From Erysipelotrichaceae bacterium (GTDB taxonomy: Bacteria; Bacillota_I; Bacilli_A; Erysipelotrichales; Erysipelotrichaceae), in NCBI GenBank assembly GCA_963663995.1, contig OY760660.1, forward strand, positions 1,260,001-1,292,000: a DNA stretch of 32,000 nucleotides, in the 5' to 3' direction. Below the pieces are notes generated by a model that made no database searches, was not told the origin of the DNA, and worked only from the letters and a program-made list of their open reading frames with translations. Both the position numbers and the translations under genes were made by a program. Positions 8,006 through 26,617 of the stretch are shown here, piece by piece (the first letter of the stretch is position 1; the number at the start of each line of letters is the position of its first letter).

Positions 8006-9688
8006 TTAATTCCAAAGATTTGCATTGCCATAACGTGCATCAAGTTCTGCAGAGAACCAACGTCCGTTCATGACATTAGAAATAACAAATTCTTTTAATC
8101 CTTCAGGAACCGTTGTATCTGCATCCATCGCATCCATGATCGCTTCATAAGATGTAGTATCATCTTTCAATTCGACAATCGCAGAAGTATCATCTGAATC
8201 AAATACCATTGATACTGTGTTATCAACTGTGAATGCATCCCAAGTAGCTAGTTCACCACCATTAGGATCACCAGATACTAAGAAGTTTGTTAAGTACTCA
8301 TTGAATACATCAGACATCGACGTATAACCTTCACCATTGAAGATATCTCCAAAGAAGCCTGAGTAACCATGTGTACTTGTTAACATAGGTACAAAGATAC
8401 CGTGGAATGAATAAACACCCCATCCTGCTAGAGTAGGATCCATATAGTTAGAATCTAAACCAGCATAGTTTACTTGAGCAACATAGATATTAGAATCATA
8501 TTTTTCATCCATTGCTTCAGCACTTAGTTGTGCATTGAAGATACGATACATGTCAGAACCATAGATTGATGCAAATTGTTTAGCAGCTGCGATTTCTTCT
8601 TCTGTATATTCCGCAACGATTGTTTCGTTTGCGTATGATCCATCAAATACATTGAAGAATGTAAATTCTGTATCACCCGTTAACATAAGTACTGGTACAT
8701 CATTATATACAGTAGTATCAAAACCTTCTTCAGGTATTCCAACACCATCTGTATAGAGATGTGGGAATACACTCATACGAATTCCCGCATTTCCCATAAG
8801 AACTGCTAATCTTTCGCCAGATACTGAATATAAGTAATCGGCTGTTTCTTGAGTATCTTCTAGTAAGAATGAAACTGCTGCATCTGTATCAGCCGCAACA
8901 CCATCTTCAACAGCTAGAGGTGCAATAGCTTCAGCTATTTTTTGTGCACTCATGTCTTCATCAGCAAGTGTCATACCACCACTGAATACAATCGCTTTAT
9001 CAAATTTGTCTTCGAATAATGGAGAGATTAACATCGCCATAACATCACGACCACCCGCTGAGAAACCAGAGATTGTAATATTTTCTGGATCTCCACCAAA
9101 TGAAGCAATATTAGCTTTAACCCAATCTAAAGCTTTTGCCATATCTTGTAGTGCATAGTTACTTGTTTCACCTTCATCAACAACTGCCGGTAAAGCATTG
9201 AAACCAAGTAAGCCTAAACGATAGTTAACAGATACAAATACGATATTATCTTTTTGTACTAAATCAAAACCAGGAATTTCTTGTGTGTTACCTGTTTGGT
9301 TATTACCACCATGTAGGTATACAAGAACTGGTAAGTTATCACTACCACCTTCTTGACCATAAACATCTAAGAATAAACTGTCTTCTGTTCCAACTGCTTC
9401 AGTGCCTGATAATTGTAGAGCAACTGCATGTGGAACGGTCGCATCTAGTGTGCCTTCCCAATCGGATGCATCCTCAGGTGCACTCCATCTGAGTTCATCC
9501 ACTGGTGCTGCTGCATATGGAATACCATACCAAGCAATTGATCCATCTTGGACTAAACCTTGTACATCCCCATTTTCAACTGTAACTAAACTACCAAGCA
9601 CAAATGGCACAGCAGGTTCAGATGAACAAGCTGTTAATGAGAAAGACAACATTAAGCTAACAACTAATAATGTTAAGAATTTTTTCAT
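8006..9688 (-). CDS. Secreted lipoprotein, type-B carboxylesterase/lipase family
   Basis: Lipobox signal MKKFLTLLVVSLMLSFSLTAC. Oxyanion region VYLHGGN and nucleophile elbow ISGFSAGG (GxSxG). The protein is very acidic and the gene is visibly more G+C-rich than its neighbours. Confidence 0.85.
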   Translation of the reverse strand: MKKFLTLLVVSLMLSFSLTACSSEPAVPFVLGSLVTVENGDVQGLVQDGSIAWYGIPYAAAPVDELRWSAPEDASDWEGTLDATVPHAVALQLSGTEAVGTEDSLFLDVYGQEGGSDNLPVLVYLHGGNNQTGNTQEIPGFDLVQKDNIVFVSVNYRLGLLGFNALPAVVDEGETSNYALQDMAKALDWVKANIASFGGDPENITISGFSAGGRDVMAMLISPLFEDKFDKAIVFSGGMTLADEDMSAQKIAEAIAPLAVEDGVAADTDAAVSFLLEDTQETADYLYSVSGERLAVLMGNAGIRMSVFPHLYTDGVGIPEEGFDTTVYNDVPVLMLTGDTEFTFFNVFDGSYANETIVAEYTEEEIAAAKQFASIYGSDMYRIFNAQLSAEAMDEKYDSNIYVAQVNYAGLDSNYMDPTLAGWGVYSFHGIFVPMLTSTHGYSGFFGDIFNGEGYTSMSDVFNEYLTNFLVSGDPNGGELATWDAFTVDNTVSMVFDSDDTSAIVELKDDTTSYEAIMDAMDADTTVPEGLKEFVISNVMNGRWFSAELDARYGNANLWN

Positions 9689-9700
9689 GTTTCTTTTACA

Positions 9701-9720
9701 TGCGCATATTTATATGCGCA
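9701..9720. repeat. Perfect palindrome TGCGCATAT-TT-ATATGCGCA in the esterase 5' leader
   Basis: Read directly: 9-bp arms, 12 nt upstream of the esterase ATG, lying between an SD-like AAGGAAGGG (9722-9731) and the start codon. Confidence 0.6.
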
Positions 9721-9823
9721 ATCCCTTCCTTTTTGACCTTAGGTTTAAGAGCTTGTTACTTATCCATAATGACTTCCCTCTAATACAGATAAGCAACACG
9801 TTCTCTATCAACCTAAATATCTG

Positions 9824-9851
9824 AGTTTAATTTACACTTTTATAGTGTCAA
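9824..9851 (-). promoter_or_regulatory. Putative sigma-A promoter of the esterase gene
   Basis: Minus strand TTGACA (9851-9846), a 16-nt spacer, then TAAACT (9829-9824). This predicts a leader of about 125-130 nt. Confidence 0.5.
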
Positions 9852-9852
9852 T

Positions 9853-9875
9853 AAAAAAGTTGAAAAAACTTCAAC
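9853..9875 (-). terminator. Orphan terminator-like hairpin immediately upstream of the esterase promoter
   Basis: Minus strand GTTGAA-GTTTT-TTCAAC followed by TTTTTT. No minus-strand gene ends here. Confidence 0.4.
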
Positions 9876-9920
9876 CTTTGTAATCCCTTTCATGCATGTA
9901 TTGTCGTTTATAATAAGACT

Positions 9921-11375
9921 ATGAAAATCAATCAATTGAGATTAACCTTTACATCGATTGCCTTAACCCTTAGTTGGTTGTTTGCGCTACTAGGTTTAAT
10001 TGTTTATATTCAAAATTTGAATCAATATTTCTTTGTCAGTCGATCACTATTTATATTCCCTAACTTTTTCTGGAACATCTTAGATACATTAAAGATCAGT
10101 ATAGATACGAGTATTCGTTTAATGCTTTGGGGGACAAGTTTCTTTGTCTTTCTCTTCGTTGATTTTACAATTAACTACACCAGCTTTATTAAGAAACAAA
10201 ATCGTTATCTATTAGAACTTGTATTAATAGTATGGTTCGTGTTTGTTTCATTAATTTATGATCCTGTGCTTTATGAAAGAATCTATTATTCCTTTTTATC
10301 TGTAAATAGCACTCATCTAAATTTTGAACAATTCTATAACCTACAAGCCGTTTTTCACTTCACAACGTCGTTTGTCAACATTCTACTTATTTTTGCTTCC
10401 ATCACTATTTTATTAAGATTCTATATTCGTAATCGTAAATATATTTACTTTAATCGGCCATTAAAAAGAACGGTTATTTCATTAATTATTATTGTGATAG
10501 TTTATTTAATGTTATTTACGGGTGCACCATACTTTTTAAAAACAGTATCTCTTTTAAGCCAAACCATTCGTTATCAACGGATTAATTTAGGTGTTTTTGA
10601 TTCACTATATTCATTTATTCCTTATATTATGTTGTTTACTCTATTATTTACCTTTTATATTGTGTTTGATCAAAGACGTTTCGTGATAGAAAATGAAAAT
10701 AAAGATTTAAAGATATTAAGAGATGTCTCAGTGGCTAACTCAAGTTCTCGCATTTTTACCCATTCTGTTAAGAATCAACTGGTGGCGATATTAGCTGATA
10801 CAGAACAATTACTGGAAACTCTAGATAAAAATAACGTTTCTTACAAACTCGCACATTCCATCAAAGAGAGTACTCAACATACCATTCAACATGTTAATGA
10901 TCTAAGACATTTTATGGATAACTTAGTGGTCGAACTCAAACCTACCCACTTAGATGCGTTCATACAATCTTTAAACTTTAATAAACTCTTTAGCAAAGAG
11001 ATAGCCTATATTCCATACTTTGAAAGTGAATCTATATGTTTAATAGATGCTCAGTTAATGCAGGAAGCATTGCTTGTCATTATTAAGAATGCGATCGATG
11101 CGATGAGTCAAAATAAAGGCACCATCAGAATCAATACAAAAGATACCGATAAGTTTGCGATCATTGAAATCTGTGATACGGGATGTGGTATTGATAAAAA
11201 AGATATTGAGAAAATCTTTGATCCGTTCTTTAGTACTAAACCAAGTCGCACAAACTGGGGGGTTGGTTTAACCTTCTCTCAAAAGATTGTGATGGCACAT
11301 CATGGAAGAATACAAGTTGAAAGCAAGTTAAATTCAGGAACATGCTTTAGTATTTATCTTCCAATCATTGAATAG
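9921..11375 (+). CDS. Membrane sensor histidine kinase
   Basis: The N-terminal half has multiple TM segments. H-box FTHSVKNQL, N-box IIKNAIDA, G1 DTGCGI and G2 GVGL are present (HATPase_c). Confidence 0.85.
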   Translation: MKINQLRLTFTSIALTLSWLFALLGLIVYIQNLNQYFFVSRSLFIFPNFFWNILDTLKISIDTSIRLMLWGTSFFVFLFVDFTINYTSFIKKQNRYLLELVLIVWFVFVSLIYDPVLYERIYYSFLSVNSTHLNFEQFYNLQAVFHFTTSFVNILLIFASITILLRFYIRNRKYIYFNRPLKRTVISLIIIVIVYLMLFTGAPYFLKTVSLLSQTIRYQRINLGVFDSLYSFIPYIMLFTLLFTFYIVFDQRRFVIENENKDLKILRDVSVANSSSRIFTHSVKNQLVAILADTEQLLETLDKNNVSYKLAHSIKESTQHTIQHVNDLRHFMDNLVVELKPTHLDAFIQSLNFNKLFSKEIAYIPYFESESICLIDAQLMQEALLVIIKNAIDAMSQNKGTIRINTKDTDKFAIIEICDTGCGIDKKDIEKIFDPFFSTKPSRTNWGVGLTFSQKIVMAHHGRIQVESKLNSGTCFSIYLPIIE

Positions 11376-11432
11376 GGTTGATGTTTTTTCAACCCAAAAA
11401 AGTTTGTATTTCAAACGATAATAAAGGTGACT

Positions 11433-19611: not shown

Positions 19612-20418
19612 CTAAACTCTTCTTACAATTTGGCATTTGTTCAATTTAGAAAGTGCAAAAGAAATAATATGCAATATTTGTAAGCAATCATCTTCATTAT
19701 CGTAACTATATATTTTAGGTTTATGTGATCGAGGATTTCTAAATAAATTCCCAATTGATAATAATAACTGACGATATCCTGTGAATTCATCAATTTCAGA
19801 TTGATTTTTCATTGATGAAAAAACTAGCATTGGAGACTTATCGTTAAATGCTTCATATACAAGACTATTGGAATCAGTTGTTAGACCAGTTAATTTTCTT
19901 ATTTCATCATACAGGGATTTGGATGATTCTAAGATAATATTAAAATAATCTTCATGAATTATATCAGGTTTACAAAAATCAATTATTTTAGGATGAATAT
20001 TTAAATTCTCAAGTTTAACTTTGAATAACTGTGTATCAATCATTGCCTCACGCAATGTAGTTGCCTTTTTAGTAACTACGCATTTACCGGACTCATTAAT
20101 TGTTATTCCATCAAAAGCAAGAATTGTATTAAGAGTTAATCTAAGTTGAATAAAATCATCATGTCTACCAATGAAATTAACTGGGTTAATATAATATTCA
20201 ATTAAAGCGATTATATGATTAGCACAGTCAAATTTTTGTTGATAAAGAGTAAATTGTTTTTCAATTCTTCTCCACTTAGTTGTACGCTCTACATCGTCTT
20301 GTGTTGGGAAATTAACATTTCTAAATTGTTTTGTTAAATTATATCCTGTAGTTAATTCACCAAAGATTTTACTTATTGCTTCTAAAGTGTTAGGTCCAAA
20401 ACATTCTATTTTTGCCAT
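19612..20418 (-). CDS. Ymh/TIGR02391-family protein (HEPN-like, RNPRSH motif) with an unknown N-terminal domain
   Basis: The C-terminal ~120 aa match my recollection of the TIGR02391 layout: SLYDEIRKLTG...LVYEAF...EFTGYRQLLLSIGNLFRNPRSHKP...CLQILHIISFALSKL, including R-x4-H. The ATG at 20418 is preferred because GGGTGGGA lies 6 nt upstream; the ORF track starts at the GTG at 20430. Confidence 0.8.
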   Translation of the reverse strand: MAKIECFGPNTLEAISKIFGELTTGYNLTKQFRNVNFPTQDDVERTTKWRRIEKQFTLYQQKFDCANHIIALIEYYINPVNFIGRHDDFIQLRLTLNTILAFDGITINESGKCVVTKKATTLREAMIDTQLFKVKLENLNIHPKIIDFCKPDIIHEDYFNIILESSKSLYDEIRKLTGLTTDSNSLVYEAFNDKSPMLVFSSMKNQSEIDEFTGYRQLLLSIGNLFRNPRSHKPKIYSYDNEDDCLQILHIISFALSKLNKCQIVRRV

Positions 20419-20525
20419 TAATTTTCCCACCCATTTTCTACTTTCAAATATAACATCTAATAAGTTAAATTTCTAATTGCTTAGATTGTGTAATAATAAT
20501 ATCAATGATTAATTGGTGAGGGAAT

Positions 20526-20882
20526 ATGAAACAAAATTCTGAAACACAAATTCAAAAATGGAACGAAACATTAATTGAAATTATTGAGAGGATTGATTGG
20601 TATTACTTTGAGCTTGATGCCAATTCACAAAAAATATTGGATAATAAAGATTATAGAAATCATCCAATTTCAACATCTATGGCACAACTAAGAATATTTT
20701 CCTTTGAACTTAGCGATGAGGTTAATAAGGATATTTTGAAAGAAATTCTAAAACTAGTCTATAAGTATGATAAGTACAAAATCTATAGTATGGAAACAAT
20801 TATTGAGGATATTATGAATTTATATATTACAGATTTATCTATGTTAATAAATCAAATATATGATCATATGTTAAGTAAATAA
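20526..20882 (+). CDS. Hypothetical 118-aa protein, first gene of a two-gene operon
   Basis: Good SD (GGTGAGGG). No recognisable motif; probably helical. Its stop lies 13 nt before the next gene's ATG. Confidence 0.6.
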   Translation: MKQNSETQIQKWNETLIEIIERIDWYYFELDANSQKILDNKDYRNHPISTSMAQLRIFSFELSDEVNKDILKEILKLVYKYDKYKIYSMETIIEDIMNLYITDLSMLINQIYDHMLSK

Positions 20883-20895
20883 ATGGTAATTGAAA

Positions 20896-21828
20896 ATGAG
20901 TGAAAGAAAATGTTTAGTTTGTGGATCTTCAGAATGTAAAATAACTGAGAATCCTGGCTATAAAAGCATAGTGAACTGTAAACATGGGTTCAAATACATT
21001 GTTTTTGATGAAGTGTTTGAACAGCAGGATGACATTCTAATCAAGTGTAGTAGTTTGATTTTAGAAAAGTTATTACAAAATAGAAACGAAATGCTTATCT
21101 TTTACTATGACAAAGAAAAAAATGAAGACTTAGGAATTAATTTATATAATCTAATAATTAATTATCCAAAGAATATTTCTCAAAAAATAGATAGAATTCT
21201 TTTAAATTTAACTAACAGGCACCCAATCTATGGATATATGTTTAGAACGGATGATTTGGATGACAAATTATTATTCCCTGAAACAAATCAATATCTTGAG
21301 TATGATGGAATTCTAAATATGCTCATCGATTTAAAATATCTAACAAGAGATAATAGAGATGAATATTTTATTATTACATCTAAAGCGTGGGAAAGAGTTG
21401 AGAGTTTACAAAAATCAGCACAAACAACTAACACTGCTTTTCTTGCTATATCATTTGGATCTGAGTCTGAGACCATAATAAAATCGATAAGGAAAGCTGT
21501 CACAAGTTGTGGTTATGATTTTATGATTATTAGTGAGAAAGAGCATAATAATCAGATAGTTCCAGAAATACTATATGAGATAAGTAAAAGTAAATTCGTT
21601 GTTGTCGATATAACACATGGTAATTTTGGAGCTTATTATGAAGCGGGTTATGCGCATGGAATCGGTAAAGAAGTAATTGTGTGCTGCAATAAAGGCAATT
21701 TCCAAAGTGATGATAAAGAAAAACACCCACACTTTGATATATCGCAGAAGAACATGGTTTTATGGGATGATCTCTTAGACTTAGAAGAAAGACTAGTCAA
21801 GAGAATTCAATCAACCGTGGAGGAATAG
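20896..21828 (+). CDS. Zn-ribbon + wHTH-like + nucleoside 2-deoxyribosyltransferase/DNPH1-like (SLOG/TIR-related Rossmannoid) domain protein
   Basis: N-terminal C8-x2-C11...C30-x-H32 (numbering from the TTG at 20890). The C-terminal 182-295 reads AFLAISFG...SKFVVVDITHGNFGAYYEAGYAHGIGKEVIVCC...HFDI, matching the NDT-family core (D/T.G..[FY]E.GyA...gK.vi). An alternative TTG start is at 20890. Confidence 0.65.
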   Translation: MSERKCLVCGSSECKITENPGYKSIVNCKHGFKYIVFDEVFEQQDDILIKCSSLILEKLLQNRNEMLIFYYDKEKNEDLGINLYNLIINYPKNISQKIDRILLNLTNRHPIYGYMFRTDDLDDKLLFPETNQYLEYDGILNMLIDLKYLTRDNRDEYFIITSKAWERVESLQKSAQTTNTAFLAISFGSESETIIKSIRKAVTSCGYDFMIISEKEHNNQIVPEILYEISKSKFVVVDITHGNFGAYYEAGYAHGIGKEVIVCCNKGNFQSDDKEKHPHFDISQKNMVLWDDLLDLEERLVKRIQSTVEE

Positions 21829-21943: not shown

Positions 21944-22061
21944 GAGAGTATAAAATATTTTGTGTAAACGTCTCTAAGTAGAAGAGACGGTGTTCTTTGA
22001 AAGAGTGGGAAGCACTCATGTAAAATGTAGTTGTTCAGAAAACAATTACAGGAGACTTCCC

Positions 22062-23252
22062 ATGTCAAATTTTAGCACAGATTTAATGAGCGCATTTCTT
22101 AAAGGTGAAAGTATCGAAGAAGTGATGCGAATCGAACTTGAGAAAGCTGTTAATGAGTTATTACAGTTAGAGTTAACCAGTTATCTAGACTATGATAAAT
22201 ATGATCCCATTGGTTATAACACAGGTAACTCAAGAAATGGAACTTACACACGTCAACTCAAAACACGCTTTGGAGAAATCAGTGTAGAAATACCACGAGA
22301 TCGTAATGGAGAATTCAAGCAGCACACAGTTCCCAGTTATAAGCGAAGCACCGATGATTTAGAATCCATGATTATTCAGATGTATCAACGTGGGATAACG
22401 ACATCTGAGATATCAGAACTCATTGAACGCATGTTTGGAATGTATTACACACCGCAAACGATATCGAATATGACGCAAGTTCTAAGTGATCAAGTTGAAG
22501 CGTTTCATACCCGTCAAATTCAGTCTCGATATGTCAGTTTATATCTGGATGCGACTTACTTAAGCGTAAGACGAGATCGTGTCTCTAAAGAAGCTTTACA
22601 CATCATTGTCGGGATTACAGAGGAAGGCATCAAAGAGATTCTAGATTATCGTCTATATCCTTCAGAATCCTCTGAGAACTATCGAGAAATGCTTGAAGAC
22701 TTAAAGTCACGAGGATTAGAAGAAGCACTCATATGTGTCAGTGATGGGTTAACTGGGCTAAGAGATGTTTGTTTAGAAGTATTCCCACAAACTCAACATC
22801 AAAGTTGTTGGGTACATCTATCAAGACGCGTAGGTCATTTAGTTAGAGCTAAAGACAAAGGGATTGTGTTGAATGATTTGAAGGATGTTTATCAAGCTAA
22901 AACAAAGAATGAAGCTTTGATTAATTTAGAAGTTTTTAGAACCAAATATGAAAGACATTATCCTAAAGCCGTTCAAGTCCTAAGCAATACTGAATCACTT
23001 CTAAGCTTCTATAACTTCCCACAATCCATTCAAAGAAGTATTTACACAACTAACTTGATTGAAAATCTAAACAAACAACTCAAACGTCAAACGAAGAAAA
23101 AAGAACAGTTTCCCAATGAAGAATCTTTAGACAGATTCATCTGTAGTCTGTTCTTGAATATGAATCAAAAGTTCCAAAGTAGAATCCACAAAGGATTCAA
23201 TAAATCTGAATACGAATTAGAAAAACATTTCGACAAAACATTTTACGAGTAA
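22062..23252 (+). CDS. IS256-family (Transposase_mut/MULE) transposase
   Basis: The 396-aa layout and blocks resemble IS256 transposases (YLDYDKYD...NSRNGTY, LYLDATYLSVRR, ISDGLTGL, TTNLIENLNKQLKRQTKKKEQFPN). AGGAG lies 7 nt before the ATG at 22062; the GTG at 21990 would read through the IRL. Confidence 0.9.
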   Translation: MSNFSTDLMSAFLKGESIEEVMRIELEKAVNELLQLELTSYLDYDKYDPIGYNTGNSRNGTYTRQLKTRFGEISVEIPRDRNGEFKQHTVPSYKRSTDDLESMIIQMYQRGITTSEISELIERMFGMYYTPQTISNMTQVLSDQVEAFHTRQIQSRYVSLYLDATYLSVRRDRVSKEALHIIVGITEEGIKEILDYRLYPSESSENYREMLEDLKSRGLEEALICVSDGLTGLRDVCLEVFPQTQHQSCWVHLSRRVGHLVRAKDKGIVLNDLKDVYQAKTKNEALINLEVFRTKYERHYPKAVQVLSNTESLLSFYNFPQSIQRSIYTTNLIENLNKQLKRQTKKKEQFPNEESLDRFICSLFLNMNQKFQSRIHKGFNKSEYELEKHFDKTFYE

Positions 23253-23287
23253 ATTCCTTTAGAGTTTACACAAAATTCTTTACACTA

Positions 23288-24744
23288 GGGCGTGCGGACA
23301 TAAAGTTGGACAAAGAGGAGAAATATGCCAACTTATTCAAAACAACAAGTTAAAATAGCTTTAGAACTTTATAGAGAAGAAAGAAGCGCAACACAAGTCG
23401 TGAGGAAATTAGGTTATCCCACAAAAGCTACTATTTACCTTTGGTTAAGTCGTGAAAAAACAAACTCTAATAATCAGATTAAAAATACAGACTCTTATTC
23501 ATATCTAAAACGGAAAACGATTTCACCAGAACTTAAAATAAAAATCATTAAACGATGTTTTGAGGATGGGGAAGATGTTAGATATGTGGCAGAGGAGATG
23601 GGAGTTAGTCGACAAAGCATTCATAATTGGCGTAGAATAATTGAAACCAAAGGATTAATTGGACTAATGAATAAAGATAAGCAGAAGATTATCAAACCAA
23701 ATCTCACAGAAAACAAAGAAATAAAACAAGCGAATACAGAAGAAATCAATTCACTTTTAAATGAAATCAAATCATTAAAAATGGAAGTAGATCTTCTTAA
23801 AGAGGCATTAGATTTAATAAAAAAAGATAAAGGCATTGGTTATCTAAAACTAAAAAATAGTGAAAAAATCCAGTTAATCAATGCCTTAAAAAAAGAATAT
23901 CCATTGAAAGATTTACTAGAACGATTGAACATTCCAAAAAGTTCATATCATTATCATCTAAAGAAATTAAAAAGTCGTGATAAGTATGAAAATTTGTGTT
24001 TAAAAATAAAAGAAATTTATGAATTAAACCGTTGTGTATATGGTTATCGAAGAATAAAGATTAGTCTAAACAATCAAGGAGTCATTGTTTCTGAGAAGGT
24101 TATACGTCGTCTTATGAAACAGATGGAACTAAACCCAAAGTACAAAAAGAAAACAAGAAAGTATAGCTCATATCAGGGTGAAATATCAGAAGCTCCAGAC
24201 AACATTATTAATCGAGATTTCAAATCTGATTATCCAAATCAAAAATGGCTCACAGATATAACTGAATTCGCGTTATCAAATGAAAAAGTATACCTCTCTT
24301 CAATCGTTGACTGTTTTGATGGGAAGATTATTTCTTGGAATACGAGCACTCGTCCTGACGCACAACTAGCTAATGAATCACTAATAGATGCATGTAAGAC
24401 ATTAAAGAAGTCTGATAATGTGATACTTCATTCTGATCGTGGTGGACACTATCGATGGAGTAACTGGATAAATATCACCAAAGAACACAATATTATTCGA
24501 TCTATGTCTAAGAAAGGTTGTACGGGTGATAACGCTGCTTGCGAAGGTGTATTTGGTCATATAAAAAATGAATGTTTTTATGGATTAGATTTTAGAGATT
24601 TTAACGCCGAAGAATTTATTGAATATTTAAATAATTATCTAGTGTGGTTTAATGAAACTAGAATTAAAATAAAATTTGCATGTAGTATTAATGAAAATCG
24701 ACAAAAATACGGTTATTAAAGTCCAACTTTATGTCCGCACGCCC
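23288..24744 (+). mobile_element. IS3-family insertion sequence, 1457 bp, perfect 24-bp terminal inverted repeats, 3-bp TSD CTA
   Basis: GGGCGTGCGGACATAAAGTTGGAC at 23288-23311 equals the reverse complement of 24721-24744. CTA is at 23285-23287 and at 24745-24747. Confidence 0.9.
23325..24719 (+). CDS. IS3-family transposase, OrfA-OrfB fused in a single frame
   Basis: N-terminal HTH regions, then a heptad Leu region, then the DDE/rve core (WLTDITEF, HSDRGGHY, GDNAACEGVFGHIKNE). An A7G run sits at the usual OrfA/OrfB junction (23819-23826). Confidence 0.9.
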   Translation: MPTYSKQQVKIALELYREERSATQVVRKLGYPTKATIYLWLSREKTNSNNQIKNTDSYSYLKRKTISPELKIKIIKRCFEDGEDVRYVAEEMGVSRQSIHNWRRIIETKGLIGLMNKDKQKIIKPNLTENKEIKQANTEEINSLLNEIKSLKMEVDLLKEALDLIKKDKGIGYLKLKNSEKIQLINALKKEYPLKDLLERLNIPKSSYHYHLKKLKSRDKYENLCLKIKEIYELNRCVYGYRRIKISLNNQGVIVSEKVIRRLMKQMELNPKYKKKTRKYSSYQGEISEAPDNIINRDFKSDYPNQKWLTDITEFALSNEKVYLSSIVDCFDGKIISWNTSTRPDAQLANESLIDACKTLKKSDNVILHSDRGGHYRWSNWINITKEHNIIRSMSKKGCTGDNAACEGVFGHIKNECFYGLDFRDFNAEEFIEYLNNYLVWFNETRIKIKFACSINENRQKYGY

Positions 24745-24817
24745 CTACCAATCATTAAAAGAAATATATACATTTATTTAATGTATAAGATAACTATTTC
24801 TCTCATGCTTATAATAT

Positions 24818-25144
24818 CTATTCTTCCTCAACACTTACTAAAAATAATTGTTGATCAAACTTACCATTCTTAATAGCTTTAACTGCTTGAGCCATATTTA
24901 CTTCAGATGAAGTAATAAGATACTTCTCTTTTATCTTGTCCATGACTTCTTGTAGATCTGCTAACTCTTGTATCATTGAAGCTTTATCTTGAGCTTGAAC
25001 TGCTTCACGTGCTTCTTCTACGAGTTTTTCTTTTAGTGCTACTAAAAAGGTTTCATCATCTAAGCTTATGAATTCAGCATGTTTACCATCTTTATTAATG
25101 ATTGCAGGTATATTATCTCTTACTAATTTTTTATAGATTTTCAT
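24818..25144 (-). CDS. MazG-like all-alpha NTP pyrophosphohydrolase (PRA-PH-like small family)
   Basis: MKIYKKLVRDNIPAII N-terminus is typical of this family. Metal-binding motifs EEAREA and ELADLQE are present. The ATG at 25144 is preferred, 1 nt after the upstream TAA. Confidence 0.75.
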   Translation of the reverse strand: MKIYKKLVRDNIPAIINKDGKHAEFISLDDETFLVALKEKLVEEAREAVQAQDKASMIQELADLQEVMDKIKEKYLITSSEVNMAQAVKAIKNGKFDQQLFLVSVEEE

Positions 25145-25145
25145 A

Positions 25146-25562
25146 TTAAATTTCATACTCACTACTAATTCTCAAATAAATTCTTTGTTCTTTTGTTGAA
25201 TTGATTTCATCATAAACAAAAATGCCGATAAAACGATAACCATCCATTGTATTTTGGTCTTTTACAAACGTTACTCTAGTATGTTTAGATTGTTTTTTTA
25301 ATTTAGTTATTTCTTTCGAGTCATCTCTAGTTTCAATTATAACTTTTCCATTATCAGAAATTATGTTTATCCAACCATGATTTGATGGTGATACAAATAC
25401 ACCATTTTCTTTATAAGCCAATTGTGGACACCATGCATACAAATTACCTTTAATTGGAAAATAACCGTGTTGCATAGCTTTGACATCTTTACCAAGCGTA
25501 TTAGCTATATCTACAATTAGTCTATATCTTTCAACATCATTAATCGTTAACTTTTCTTTCAC
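25146..25562 (-). CDS. Hypothetical 138-aa protein (GTG start), middle gene of the operon
   Basis: GGAGGA SD lies 9 nt upstream of the GTG. No family recognised. The pattern looks beta-rich (YFPIKGNLYAWCPQL, GWINIISDNGKVIIE, RVTFVKD, YRFIGIFVYDE). Confidence 0.6.
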   Translation of the reverse strand: MKEKLTINDVERYRLIVDIANTLGKDVKAMQHGYFPIKGNLYAWCPQLAYKENGVFVSPSNHGWINIISDNGKVIIETRDDSKEITKLKKQSKHTRVTFVKDQNTMDGYRFIGIFVYDEINSTKEQRIYLRISSEYEI

Positions 25563-25585
25563 TTAATAAATATCCTCCAATTAAA

Positions 25586-26455
25586 TCAAAATACTCCTAT
25601 AATTTTCCAAACAGTACTTTCTTTTTTTCTAAATGTATTTTTCGTACCAAATCCAAGTTTTGAAATTTCAGCAAATAAATCGGCATTTATTCCAAAATCA
25701 TCATTATATTCTAGTAATAAATGAAAATTTCTAAGATCATGGTTCAATCTACCTTCACCAACACTTTGCCATGTAGGTTCATGATGATACCATGCCAAGT
25801 TGTCAGGTAATTTCAAAGATTCATTATTTATATATTCAGCGTTATAAATTAACTTCTTATCTTTAAGTAATTTAACATTTATCTTGGTCTTTGCTTTTTT
25901 CTCAGCATCTAGCTCATTTATTGAATTGAAATCCCACCCAGAAATATATTCTACATTTATTTTCTTCGCACCAAGGTTTGTTAACAATAGGATTAGTTCT
26001 GAAAACTTATGTTCAAATGCTTTCTTATGAAACTCGTTTATTGGATAATACGTACCTATCAAAGTTGGATGTGCAACATACAATTCATTTTCTCTTGGAT
26101 GACCTATTGGAAATTTTAAATCTAATGAATCAGTGAACGAAATATAATTAACATTTACTCGCTTTGCTAACTCTCTTTGCTTTTTTATAGAGTTTAATAC
26201 CACATCTATCACTGCTATACCTATTCCAGCTGCTAACGGGACAACACCAAAACCTCTTATACTAATAACGCCAGCTATTATCGATCTCCACAAATTATCG
26301 TTGGAATCCTCATTTTTATCATTATCTTTTTCTTTTGACTTAATTTCTGATTCAAATATTTTTTCTTCTGCTAACAATTTCGTTTCGATAATCTCATCTT
26401 TTTCTACGACTAGAAACTGTCTTAAAGAATACGGTTTATCTATTAAATTTCCCAT
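25586..26455 (-). CDS. Membrane-anchored hypothetical protein (acidic N-tail, hydrophobic segment res 56-89, ~200-aa C-terminal domain)
   Basis: 289-aa ORF with AAGGA 7 nt before the ATG. The hydrophobic stretch is WRSIIAGVISIRGFGVVPLAAGIGIAVIDVVLNSI. The C-terminal domain (LAWYHHEPTWQ, FHLLLEYNDDFGI) is not recognised. Confidence 0.6.
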   Translation of the reverse strand: MGNLIDKPYSLRQFLVVEKDEIIETKLLAEEKIFESEIKSKEKDNDKNEDSNDNLWRSIIAGVISIRGFGVVPLAAGIGIAVIDVVLNSIKKQRELAKRVNVNYISFTDSLDLKFPIGHPRENELYVAHPTLIGTYYPINEFHKKAFEHKFSELILLLTNLGAKKINVEYISGWDFNSINELDAEKKAKTKINVKLLKDKKLIYNAEYINNESLKLPDNLAWYHHEPTWQSVGEGRLNHDLRNFHLLLEYNDDFGINADLFAEISKLGFGTKNTFRKKESTVWKIIGVF

Positions 26456-26533
26456 TTCCCATTCCTTTTTAAATTCAATTGATTTCTACTCATAATTATA
26501 ACCTATCATTGATTACTATTTTTTAATAAGTAA

Positions 26534-26546
26534 GTTGATAATCAAC
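26534..26546. repeat. 13-bp palindrome GTTGAT-A-ATCAAC upstream of the three-gene operon
   Basis: Read directly, 79-91 nt upstream of the 289-aa gene start. Possible operator. Confidence 0.3.
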
Positions 26547-26617
26547 AACATAATTCGCAACATGAATAAAAGAATTTTTCCCATTGCGAACACTATTTGA
26601 TATTCACTATCAATCCG

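Follow-up and report, generated by a model that had tools for sequence, protein, structure and literature searches.

Three closely packed minus-strand genes, here called g1, g2 and g3, lie at positions 24,818 to 26,455 of a 32,000-nucleotide stretch of an Erysipelotrichaceae bacterium genome (GenBank assembly GCA_963663995.1, contig OY760660.1, positions 1,260,001 to 1,292,000 of the forward strand), a stretch that we refer to as the window. Their predicted products are a member of an uncharacterised protein family (g1), a stand-alone SRA-like reader domain for modified cytosine (g2) and a small MazG-like nucleoside triphosphate (NTP) pyrophosphohydrolase (g3). Here, we argue that this operon is a mosaic formed in a chromosomal defence-island hotspot and not a co-evolved three-component system, a reading with a likely theme of modified cytosine to which we assign a probability of about 0.55. 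Comparison with syntenic loci reveals that g3 is a resident of this chromosomal site and that g1 and g2 are imported cargo. The open reading frames (ORFs) and the ribosome-binding site of g2 are arranged as follows, in nucleotides (nt) of the window.

26455 to 25586, minus strand: g1, ORF of 289 amino acids, ATG start
25573 to 25578, minus strand: GGAGGA, ribosome-binding site of g2, read directly from the sequence, 10 nt ahead of the GTG
25562 to 25146, minus strand: g2, ORF of 138 amino acids, GTG start
25144 to 24818, minus strand: g3, ORF of 108 amino acids, ATG start

An earlier account of the window, made from its letters alone and called here the sequence-only reading, had described three co-oriented minus-strand ORFs, a 23-nt gap carrying GGAGGA and a stop and start separated by a single nucleotide, and the coordinates bear out each of these details. 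The spacing of g1 and g2 is 23 nt, and the TAA stop codon of g2 (25148-25146) lies 1 nt from the ATG of g3. A listed variant of the g3 ORF extends to a GTG at 25162, within g2, and the ATG at 25144 is the better start. A terminator scan found no terminator-like sites or hairpins between the three genes.

The residence of g3 and the import of g1 and g2 are revealed by a backbone common to the window, the related 1.96-Mb genome L092 and several metagenomic contigs (compared loci are designated by L numbers). This backbone runs through DeoC, two alcohol dehydrogenases, fructose-bisphosphate aldolase, a transglutaminase-like lipoprotein, a variable stretch, the MazG-like gene and a second variable stretch to a MutH-like endonuclease with a C5 methylase. 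The locus is chromosomal and lies between conserved core genes. In the window, the conserved flanks and the cargo between them are placed as listed here.

26618 to 27541, minus strand: transglutaminase-like lipoprotein gene, conserved flank (Transglut_core E = 4.5e-7; NCBIfam MAG6410-family lipoprotein)
25146 to 26617, minus strand: cargo segment (intergenic sequence, g1 and g2), filling the slot from the stop of the transglutaminase-like gene to the start of g3
14707 to 16113, plus strand: MutH-like (Sau3AI-type) endonuclease gene, conserved far flank (Pfam MutH 7e-33)
13417 to 14661, minus strand: C5 cytosine DNA methylase gene, conserved far flank (Pfam DNA_methylase 1.4e-66), divergent from the MutH-like gene

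The transglutaminase-like lipoprotein gene is syntenic in L092, L254 and L255-257. In blastn comparisons with six syntenic loci, the block of g3 homology spans 24818-25145 each time and ends one base before the ATG, while the flank at 26620-27655 aligns with L090, L092, L253, L254 and L255. The 1,472 base pairs (bp) between this flank and g3, comprising g1, g2 and their upstream region, gave no blastn alignment with any syntenic locus. The same slot is occupied by a NUDIX and a CBS protein in L092, by a helix-turn-helix (HTH) protein and a NERD protein in L090, L091 and L253, by NUDIX, GGDEF, NERD and DUF2130 genes in L254, and by a single reverse-strand gene in L255-257. The identity of g3 to its counterparts is 82% in L092, where the flanks are 88-90% identical, and 72% in L255, where the flanks are 66-72% identical. 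Because the divergence of g3 tracks that of the flanks, g3 is vertically inherited, and g1 and g2 are cargo.

The cargo appears to have altered how g3 is expressed. Upstream of the MazG-like gene, eight of ten loci have a perfect -10 motif, TAAGTTATAAT, with the ATG 6-7 nt behind it (L090:7984-8000, L254:5984-6000, L255:5984-6000 and L089:1977-1996; also L094 and L095). Judged from its sequence and position, this motif is probably the gene's own -10 box, giving rise to an independent leaderless transcript. The window and L092 do not have it; in the window this is because the g2 stop codon abuts the ATG of g3. We propose that a 1.47-kb cargo has replaced everything between the stop of the upstream lipoprotein gene and the g3 ATG in this genome and that g3 would therefore now be read from the cargo's transcript, an arrangement that is likely in this strain. 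The far flank has a bearing on the cargo as well. Blastn also aligned the MutH-like/C5-methylase pair, which in L090 and L255-257 directly adjoins the MazG-like gene. The pair probably forms a restriction-modification system of type II, and host DNA would consequently carry 5-methylcytosine (m5C or 5mC), a matter of consequence for any resident reader of modified cytosine.

The identity of g2 supplies the modified-cytosine theme. The sequence-only reading had recognised nothing in this gene, a view overturned by a match to the Pfam family SRA (PF18491; E = 4e-20) that covers profile positions 5-145 of 145. The AbaSI structure 4par (E = 4e-4) and PvuRts1I's SRA-like domain were also matched, as were genes annotated 'AbaSI family restriction endonuclease' on Paenibacillus plasmids. 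Of the family's 27 best-conserved positions, g2 shares 23, W44, P46, W64 and N66 among them, and its block WINIISDNG aligns with WINTISPDG of AbaSI. Within the W64-x-N66 element, N66 is aligned to N217 of PvuRts1I, mutation of which alters selectivity for 5-hydroxymethylcytosine (5hmC) versus 5mC (PMC4157451); the PvuRts1I family favours 5hmC and glucosyl-5hmC (PMC4157451, PMC4081097). With the SRA identity of g2, the theme of the locus shifts from nucleotide-signalling abortive infection to modification-dependent (type IV-like) restriction.

Relative to the AbaSI and PvuRts1I type IV enzymes (4par, 4oky), g2 aligns over the entire C-terminal SRA-like reader domain but has no N-terminal Vsr-like nuclease domain and is 138 rather than ~290-320 amino acids long; it is therefore not a restriction enzyme by itself. 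In keeping with this, g2 matches only the C-terminal half (positions 155-285) of the PADLOC profile mREase_II, which describes a methyl-directed type II restriction enzyme. No remnant of a PvuRts1I_N nuclease domain was found in the window, where tblastn with a full-length homologue recovers the SRA part only. An exhaustive HMMER search retrieved 148 representative relatives of g2, mostly full-length enzymes of 283-330 amino acids; about one-third of the SRA-family representatives are short and stand-alone like g2, some of them perhaps fragments. Recent truncation of a PvuRts1I-like gene was rejected as the origin of g2 on account of the missing nuclease remnant, a 62%-identical homologue of equal stand-alone length and the mere 26% identity of g2 to the SRA domain of the full-length enzyme in L094. 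Phages yielded weak matches only (26% identity). Its sequence identifies g2 as an intact, free-standing SRA-like domain of the AbaSI/PvuRts1I type, a predicted reader of modified cytosine with no nuclease attached.

The resident gene g3 had been read as MazG-like on the strength of its KLVRDNIP, EExxE (residues 43-47) and ExxD (60-63) motifs, and this assignment is upheld by motif invariance and the modelled fold. Across 56 aligned homologues KLxRD, KLxEExxE and ExxD are invariant, with E43, E44, E47, E60 and D63 fixed. Many homologues are named 'house-cleaning noncanonical NTP pyrophosphatase (MazG superfamily)' and carry PF01503 and the COG4997 name. Against Pfam, g3 itself scores under the gathering threshold for both PRA-PH (E = 0.011) and MazG (E = 0.041), and the first structure matched by its family profile is HisE 2a7w (E = 0.007). 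The AlphaFold (AF2) model of g3 has four helices and a mean confidence (pLDDT) of 95.7. Its top Foldseek matches are HisE 1y6x (probability 0.99), Bacillus MazG 5ie9, YpjD 2gta and E. coli MazG 3crc, with E-values of 0.2-0.7 that are not significant, as expected of so short a helical bundle. The PADLOC-DB v2 profiles match g3 at chance level only. On sequence and model, we accept g3 as one of the small all-alpha NTP pyrophosphohydrolases that make up the MazG/HisE superfamily, and place it in the COG4997 type. The protein resembles the solved structures 5ie9, 2gta and 1y6x in its EExxE/ExxD metal motifs, its helical-bundle model and its length of ~108 amino acids, and differs from the superfamily in its distinctive KLVRDxIP N-terminus. 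The close subfamily of g3 also differs in setting, since it sits among nuclease and restriction genes and not among genes of histidine biosynthesis or the stringent response. Distant MazG-like genes are frequent in viral contigs (35-43% identity), whereas the close g3 subfamily is chromosomal.

For the remaining gene, g1, about 110 family members were detected, all annotated as hypothetical proteins and with no Pfam domain recorded for any of them. Homologues are spread over Firmicutes, Proteobacteria, Bacteroidota, Actinomycetota, Chloroflexota, Spirochaetia and other groups. The protein consists of an N-terminal strand, a variable, partly hydrophobic helical hairpin (residues ~50-97) and a C-terminal alpha/beta domain. 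In the family alignment P116, G118, H119, P120, H143, E148, E153, E226, R236 and D253 are invariant, and this conserved set of His, Glu and Asp residues suggests a metal-dependent enzyme. Searches of g1 against Pfam, NCBIfam, PADLOC, PHROGs and PDB sequences returned no match. The AF2 model (pLDDT 84, predicted TM score (pTM) 0.81) found nothing at E <= 0.001 in the PDB or in BFVD by Foldseek. Nor is g1 the missing nuclease half of a split AbaSI, a candidate rejected because its model bears no Foldseek likeness to 4par, 4oky or any other PDB chain (best match E = 0.8, TM ~0.13) and because a sequence-profile match is likewise absent.

The sequence-only reading had placed g1 in the membrane. 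Besides a charged low-complexity stretch, g1 does have the hydrophobic segment described at residues 56-89, with a Kyte-Doolittle 19-mer maximum of 2.32. Anchoring by this segment was not established. Only 11 of 43 family members reach 1.6 on the Kyte-Doolittle scale, and on the translocon scale the best segment has a dGapp of +3.5 kcal/mol, with none of the 43 members at or below 0. The AF2 pLDDT over the segment is 52-68. Given the two family-wide counts, membrane anchoring of g1 is unproven and doubtful, and the hydrophobic hairpin is not a trait of the family.

As a triad, the three genes do not recur elsewhere. Hidden Markov model searches of 92 g1-family loci for SRA and MazG-like proteins gave 0 matches to either, and the triad of g1, g2 and g3 is absent from every other MazG-subfamily locus too; the neighbourhood conservation that the earlier account had recommended checking is lacking on both sides. 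No recurrent partner of g1 emerged from all-against-all blastp clustering of neighbours or from Pfam and PADLOC scans of 65 tightly linked neighbours. What surrounds the g1 homologues varies from locus to locus. A promoter-like sequence and a strong ribosome-binding site of their own accompany close homologues, and most of those examined look monocistronic. Five of the seven close-homologue contexts, counting the window, are defence-like. In L080 the homologue adjoins GmrSD and a helicase. In L085 (8001-11383) a 53%-identical homologue lies directly upstream of a PRTase-CE gene, which is followed by a small winged-helix gene and one for a reverse transcriptase; HD and AAA_18 genes lie farther along. 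In L058 (7040-15906; Fusibacter ferrireducens) the context includes HNH_2, a Sa_NUDIX plus SMODS/AGS_C (CBASS-like) pair and an nSTAND3 NTPase. In L083 the homologue adjoins RNase_T/BRCT, and in L001 it lies among metabolic genes. The L058 homologue seems to be split, with an ORF of 179 amino acids and tblastn coverage of residues 1-289.

For g3, a close subfamily was defined by at least 50% identity, and nine distinct arrangements of it were compared. Nuclease or restriction-modification genes surround the MazG-like gene in eight of the nine, and C5 cytosine methylase genes lie nearby in five. An SRA/PvuRts1I-family gene stands beside it in three, namely the window, L089 and L094; no gene of this kind was found in about 150 loci fetched for more distant MazG-like genes. 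The order in L089 is GmrSD_C, an SRA-only gene, a 353-nt gap, the MazG-like gene, HNH_4 and a UvrD-like gene. In L094 the MazG-like gene is separated by 4 nt from a full-length PvuRts1I_N+SRA enzyme (PF21598 + PF18491), after which come HNH_4, HNH and a Dcm-type C5 methylase.

For the mosaic that we favour, we infer, as we do the ligands, the substrates and any physical coupling, that the locus acts against DNA containing modified cytosine. The g2 protein would bind a flipped-out 5hmC, glucosyl-5hmC or 5mC base, and g3 would hydrolyse dCTP-type or modified deoxynucleoside triphosphates (dNTPs). Hydrolysis by g3 could starve a phage of its modified precursor, or it could keep modified dNTPs out of host DNA and so spare the host from resident modification-dependent nucleases. 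Some all-alpha NTP pyrophosphatases, such as mammalian DCTPP1, favour 5-substituted dCTP. For a further superfamily member, a structural study (PMC2954211) put forward dCTP, 5-methyl-dCTP or 5-hydroxymethyl-dCTP as possible substrates. Taken with the modified-cytosine theme, these two precedents lead us to favour g3 as a putative enzyme that cleans up or depletes nucleotides of the dCTP type, with g2 as the reader. As for g1, it is most likely an independent module, an autonomous single gene that would serve at most as an opportunistic effector for g2 and not as its dedicated partner.

A reader and a nucleotide-targeting enzyme have been found together before. The PUA-Calcineurin-CE-HAD system (PUA-Cal-HAD) combines a PUA-like reader with nucleotide-degrading enzymes and has rare MazG-like variants (bioRxiv 10.64898/2026.01.15.699771), and by analogy it may serve as a precedent for such a logic. 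The present locus likewise places a modified-base reader of the PUA superfamily beside an enzyme that would attack NTPs. The reader here, however, is of the SRA-like PvuRts1I type and not of that system's PUA-like family, reader and enzyme are separate proteins, and their pairing is not conserved. Pfam and NCBIfam searches of g1, g2 and g3 gave no match to a HAD phosphatase. With no HAD partner, another reader family and separate proteins, the locus fails the defining features of PUA-Cal-HAD.

The considerations that weigh against a mosaic concern g2 and g3. The 1-nt junction and the loss of the g3 promoter could reflect selected translational coupling of the two genes, the recurrence of SRA genes by the MazG subfamily may represent a real partnership and not shared use of a hotspot, and the sample of close-subfamily loci is small, its nine arrangements including several from short metagenomic contigs. 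Alternatively, g2 and g3 could form a genuine sensor-effector pair, in which the SRA reader would sense modified cytosine, whether within DNA or in free nucleotides set loose during infection, and would activate or recruit g3 so that the dNTP or modified-dNTP pool collapses, with g1 an unrelated neighbour. The single-nucleotide gap, the absence from g3 of the independent -10 box of its relatives, the adjacency in three of nine close arrangements against none in the distant MazG loci, and the PUA-Cal-HAD precedent with its rare MazG-like substitutions all speak for such a pair. Set against them, the two genes of L089 are 353 nt apart and the MazG-like gene there keeps its own -10 box, the partner in L094 is a full-length nuclease that needs no other effector, six of the nine arrangements have a MazG-like gene without an SRA gene, the HAD partner is absent, and the association could be a by-product of a hotspot that collects type IV enzymes. 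We regard such a pair as possible though unlikely. Quite unlikely, in our judgement, is a broader nuclease-free defence in which g2 would detect hypermodified cytosine, in phage DNA or as a free nucleotide, g3 would break down the phage's pool of modified or dCTP-type dNTPs, and g1 would act as a second effector from the same transcript.

At the other extreme, the operon may have no defence role as a unit: g3 would be an ordinary house-cleaning enzyme, g2 a specificity domain, decayed or orphaned, from a type IV enzyme that has been lost, and g1 an unrelated accessory gene, their adjacency arising only from insertion and insertion sequence (IS) activity. The occurrence of g3 alone in L255-257, the frequency of NUDIX house-cleaning genes, which top the list of tight neighbours in the wider MazG-like family (5 of 70), the IS elements that abut the locus and the metabolic surroundings of the g1 homologue in L001 fit this interpretation. 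It is nevertheless unlikely, since the g2 domain is full-length and retains its conserved positions, its 62%-identical, equal-length stand-alone homologue lies in another context, short stand-alone proteins make up about one-third of the SRA-family representatives, and the close g3 subfamily is so regularly found amid nuclease and restriction-modification genes; the completeness of g2 and the existence of that homologue argue that g2 is maintained and not decaying. The sequence-only reading had instead likened the operon to nucleotide-centred abortive-infection systems; spelled out as a model, this would be a dedicated three-gene system, with a membrane-disrupting g1 controlled by the nucleotide enzyme g3 and an adaptor, g2. 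Tight spacing without an intergenic terminator-like site, the hydrophobic segment of g1 (Kyte-Doolittle 2.32) and the defence-island setting would suit such a system. It is very unlikely and largely refuted, since neither the 92 g1-family loci nor any of the other loci of the MazG subfamily contain the triad; in addition, g3 is syntenic and resident while g1 and g2 are cargo, the hydrophobic segment is not kept as a transmembrane one across the family (11 of 43 by Kyte-Doolittle, none with dGapp <= 0), anchoring of g1 itself is doubtful, and neither g1 nor g3 has a PADLOC match beyond chance level, g2 matching the reader half of mREase_II only. A second suggestion, a prophage origin, also finds no support, and a plasmid origin is likewise rejected, as the locus is chromosomal and g1 is nearly absent from phage, plasmid and viral-contig collections (one weak match in the phage and one in the plasmid collection; four loci in 2.9 million viral contigs).

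The nine close-subfamily arrangements also define a module of which the window has only the MazG-like gene. The most frequent partner of the subfamily, present in five of the nine, is an HNH_4 protein of 320 amino acids, with 60-63% identity from one lineage to another. It lies downstream of the MazG-like gene in L089, L094, L095, L254 and L262-266, and DUF2130 is often found upstream; NERD genes are the other usual upstream nuclease company. The pairing of MazG-like and HNH_4 genes fits the His-Me finger 'Group 23' proteins, which have been noted adjacent to MazG genes (PMC5714182). The present locus resembles that module in that g3 belongs to a MazG-like subfamily trailed by the HNH_4 protein, and departs from it in having an IS element where relatives have HNH_4. 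A tblastn search of the window with four HNH_4 orthologues yielded nothing significant, the best E being 0.40 at another place in the window. Deletion of an HNH_4 or DUF2130 partner by IS insertion with fragments left behind was rejected, no remnant of either having been found in the window. DUF2130/MazG-like/HNH_4 modules occupy L254:4675-7305, L262-L266, L089:1997-3281, L094:5001-7198 and L095 from 5001 to its end, and cargo of their own sometimes separates the MazG-like gene from HNH_4, as in L094 with a PvuRts1I-like enzyme and in L262 with a 1004-amino-acid Metallophos protein. The module is a candidate defence or repair system in itself, as judged from gene content. Type IV-type genes found in the hotspot comprise GmrSD, McrB_N and AspBHI-like genes. 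In L092 the slot beyond the MazG-like gene (8333-15706) holds NOV_C, an SNF2 helicase, a 456-amino-acid protein of no recognised family, a 556-amino-acid C5 methylase and an AspBHI_N+Mrr_cat type IV enzyme, and these second-slot genes confirm the locus as a hotspot for restriction genes.

Further features of the window surround the operon on both sides.

26554 to 26590, minus strand: imperfect inverted repeat TTCGCAA...TTGCGAA, with 16-nt arms that are 75% complementary and a 5-nt loop, found by repeat search
26534 to 26546, no strand assigned: 13-bp perfect palindrome GTTGATTATCAAC, covering the -35 region just upstream of the TATAAT
26495 to 26500, minus strand: perfect TATAAT -10 box of a candidate operon promoter, 39 nt upstream of the g1 ATG, with a weak -35
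23325 to 24719, plus strand: IS3-type transposase gene (rve, HTH_21 and HTH_Tnp_1 in Pfam), ~100 bp beyond the 3' side of g3

A consensus promoter and terminator scan of the window returned nothing exceeding shuffle expectation, and the TATAAT was left unlisted because its -35 is poor. The palindrome, noted earlier upstream of the operon, is present and occurs once in the window, against a mean of 0.14 matches in shuffled sequences. It is a possible operator by its position; a conserved g1 operator was rejected, the palindrome not being kept upstream of g1 homologues. Placed after the lipoprotein gene and ahead of the g1 promoter region, the inverted repeat was not called by the terminator scan; it may be the terminator of the lipoprotein gene, or an insulator.

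The mobile, defence-island setting of the operon and its abutment on insertion sequences agree with the sequence-only reading. Two neighbouring transposase genes occupy 21990-24719 on the plus strand, a Mutator/IS256-type gene of 420 amino acids followed by the IS3-type gene as one 464-amino-acid ORF, and by blastn the homology with L253 downstream of g3 ends at 24778, near the likely IS end. The claim that the operon closes an AT-rich island did not hold, since the strongly AT-rich island (G+C content 0.23-0.27) lies at ~15-21.5 kb and the operon has a value of 0.28-0.29. The most AT-rich stretch (16844-21828) encodes a 700-amino-acid protein with a weak SMC_N/RecF-like ATPase match, a reverse-strand Hypoth_Ymh protein of 272 amino acids and two proteins (118 and 312 amino acids) without a family match. 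This stretch looks like further cargo of the defence island, filling a second variable slot that lies between the MutH-like gene and g3. No structured RNA or tRNA was found at the slot boundaries.

What appears to be new at this locus is the positional coupling of a predicted stand-alone SRA reader with a MazG-like enzyme, next to an uncharacterised family. Were the nuclease-free reading correct, the locus would be a type IV-like system with a nucleotide-sanitation or abortive-infection output and no DNA cleavage. If g2 and g3, with or without g1, cooperate, they would constitute a modification-dependent defence without a nuclease of its own, in which base-flipping readers of the AbaSI type are tied to control of the nucleotide pool, and they would represent a MazG-based addition to the nucleotide-depletion defences lately reported for PUA-like readers. 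Independent of any such cooperation, the locus provides a restriction-gene hotspot with base-exact boundaries, a conserved and as yet uncharacterised MazG-like/HNH_4/DUF2130 module, and a widespread family of unannotated proteins typified by g1.

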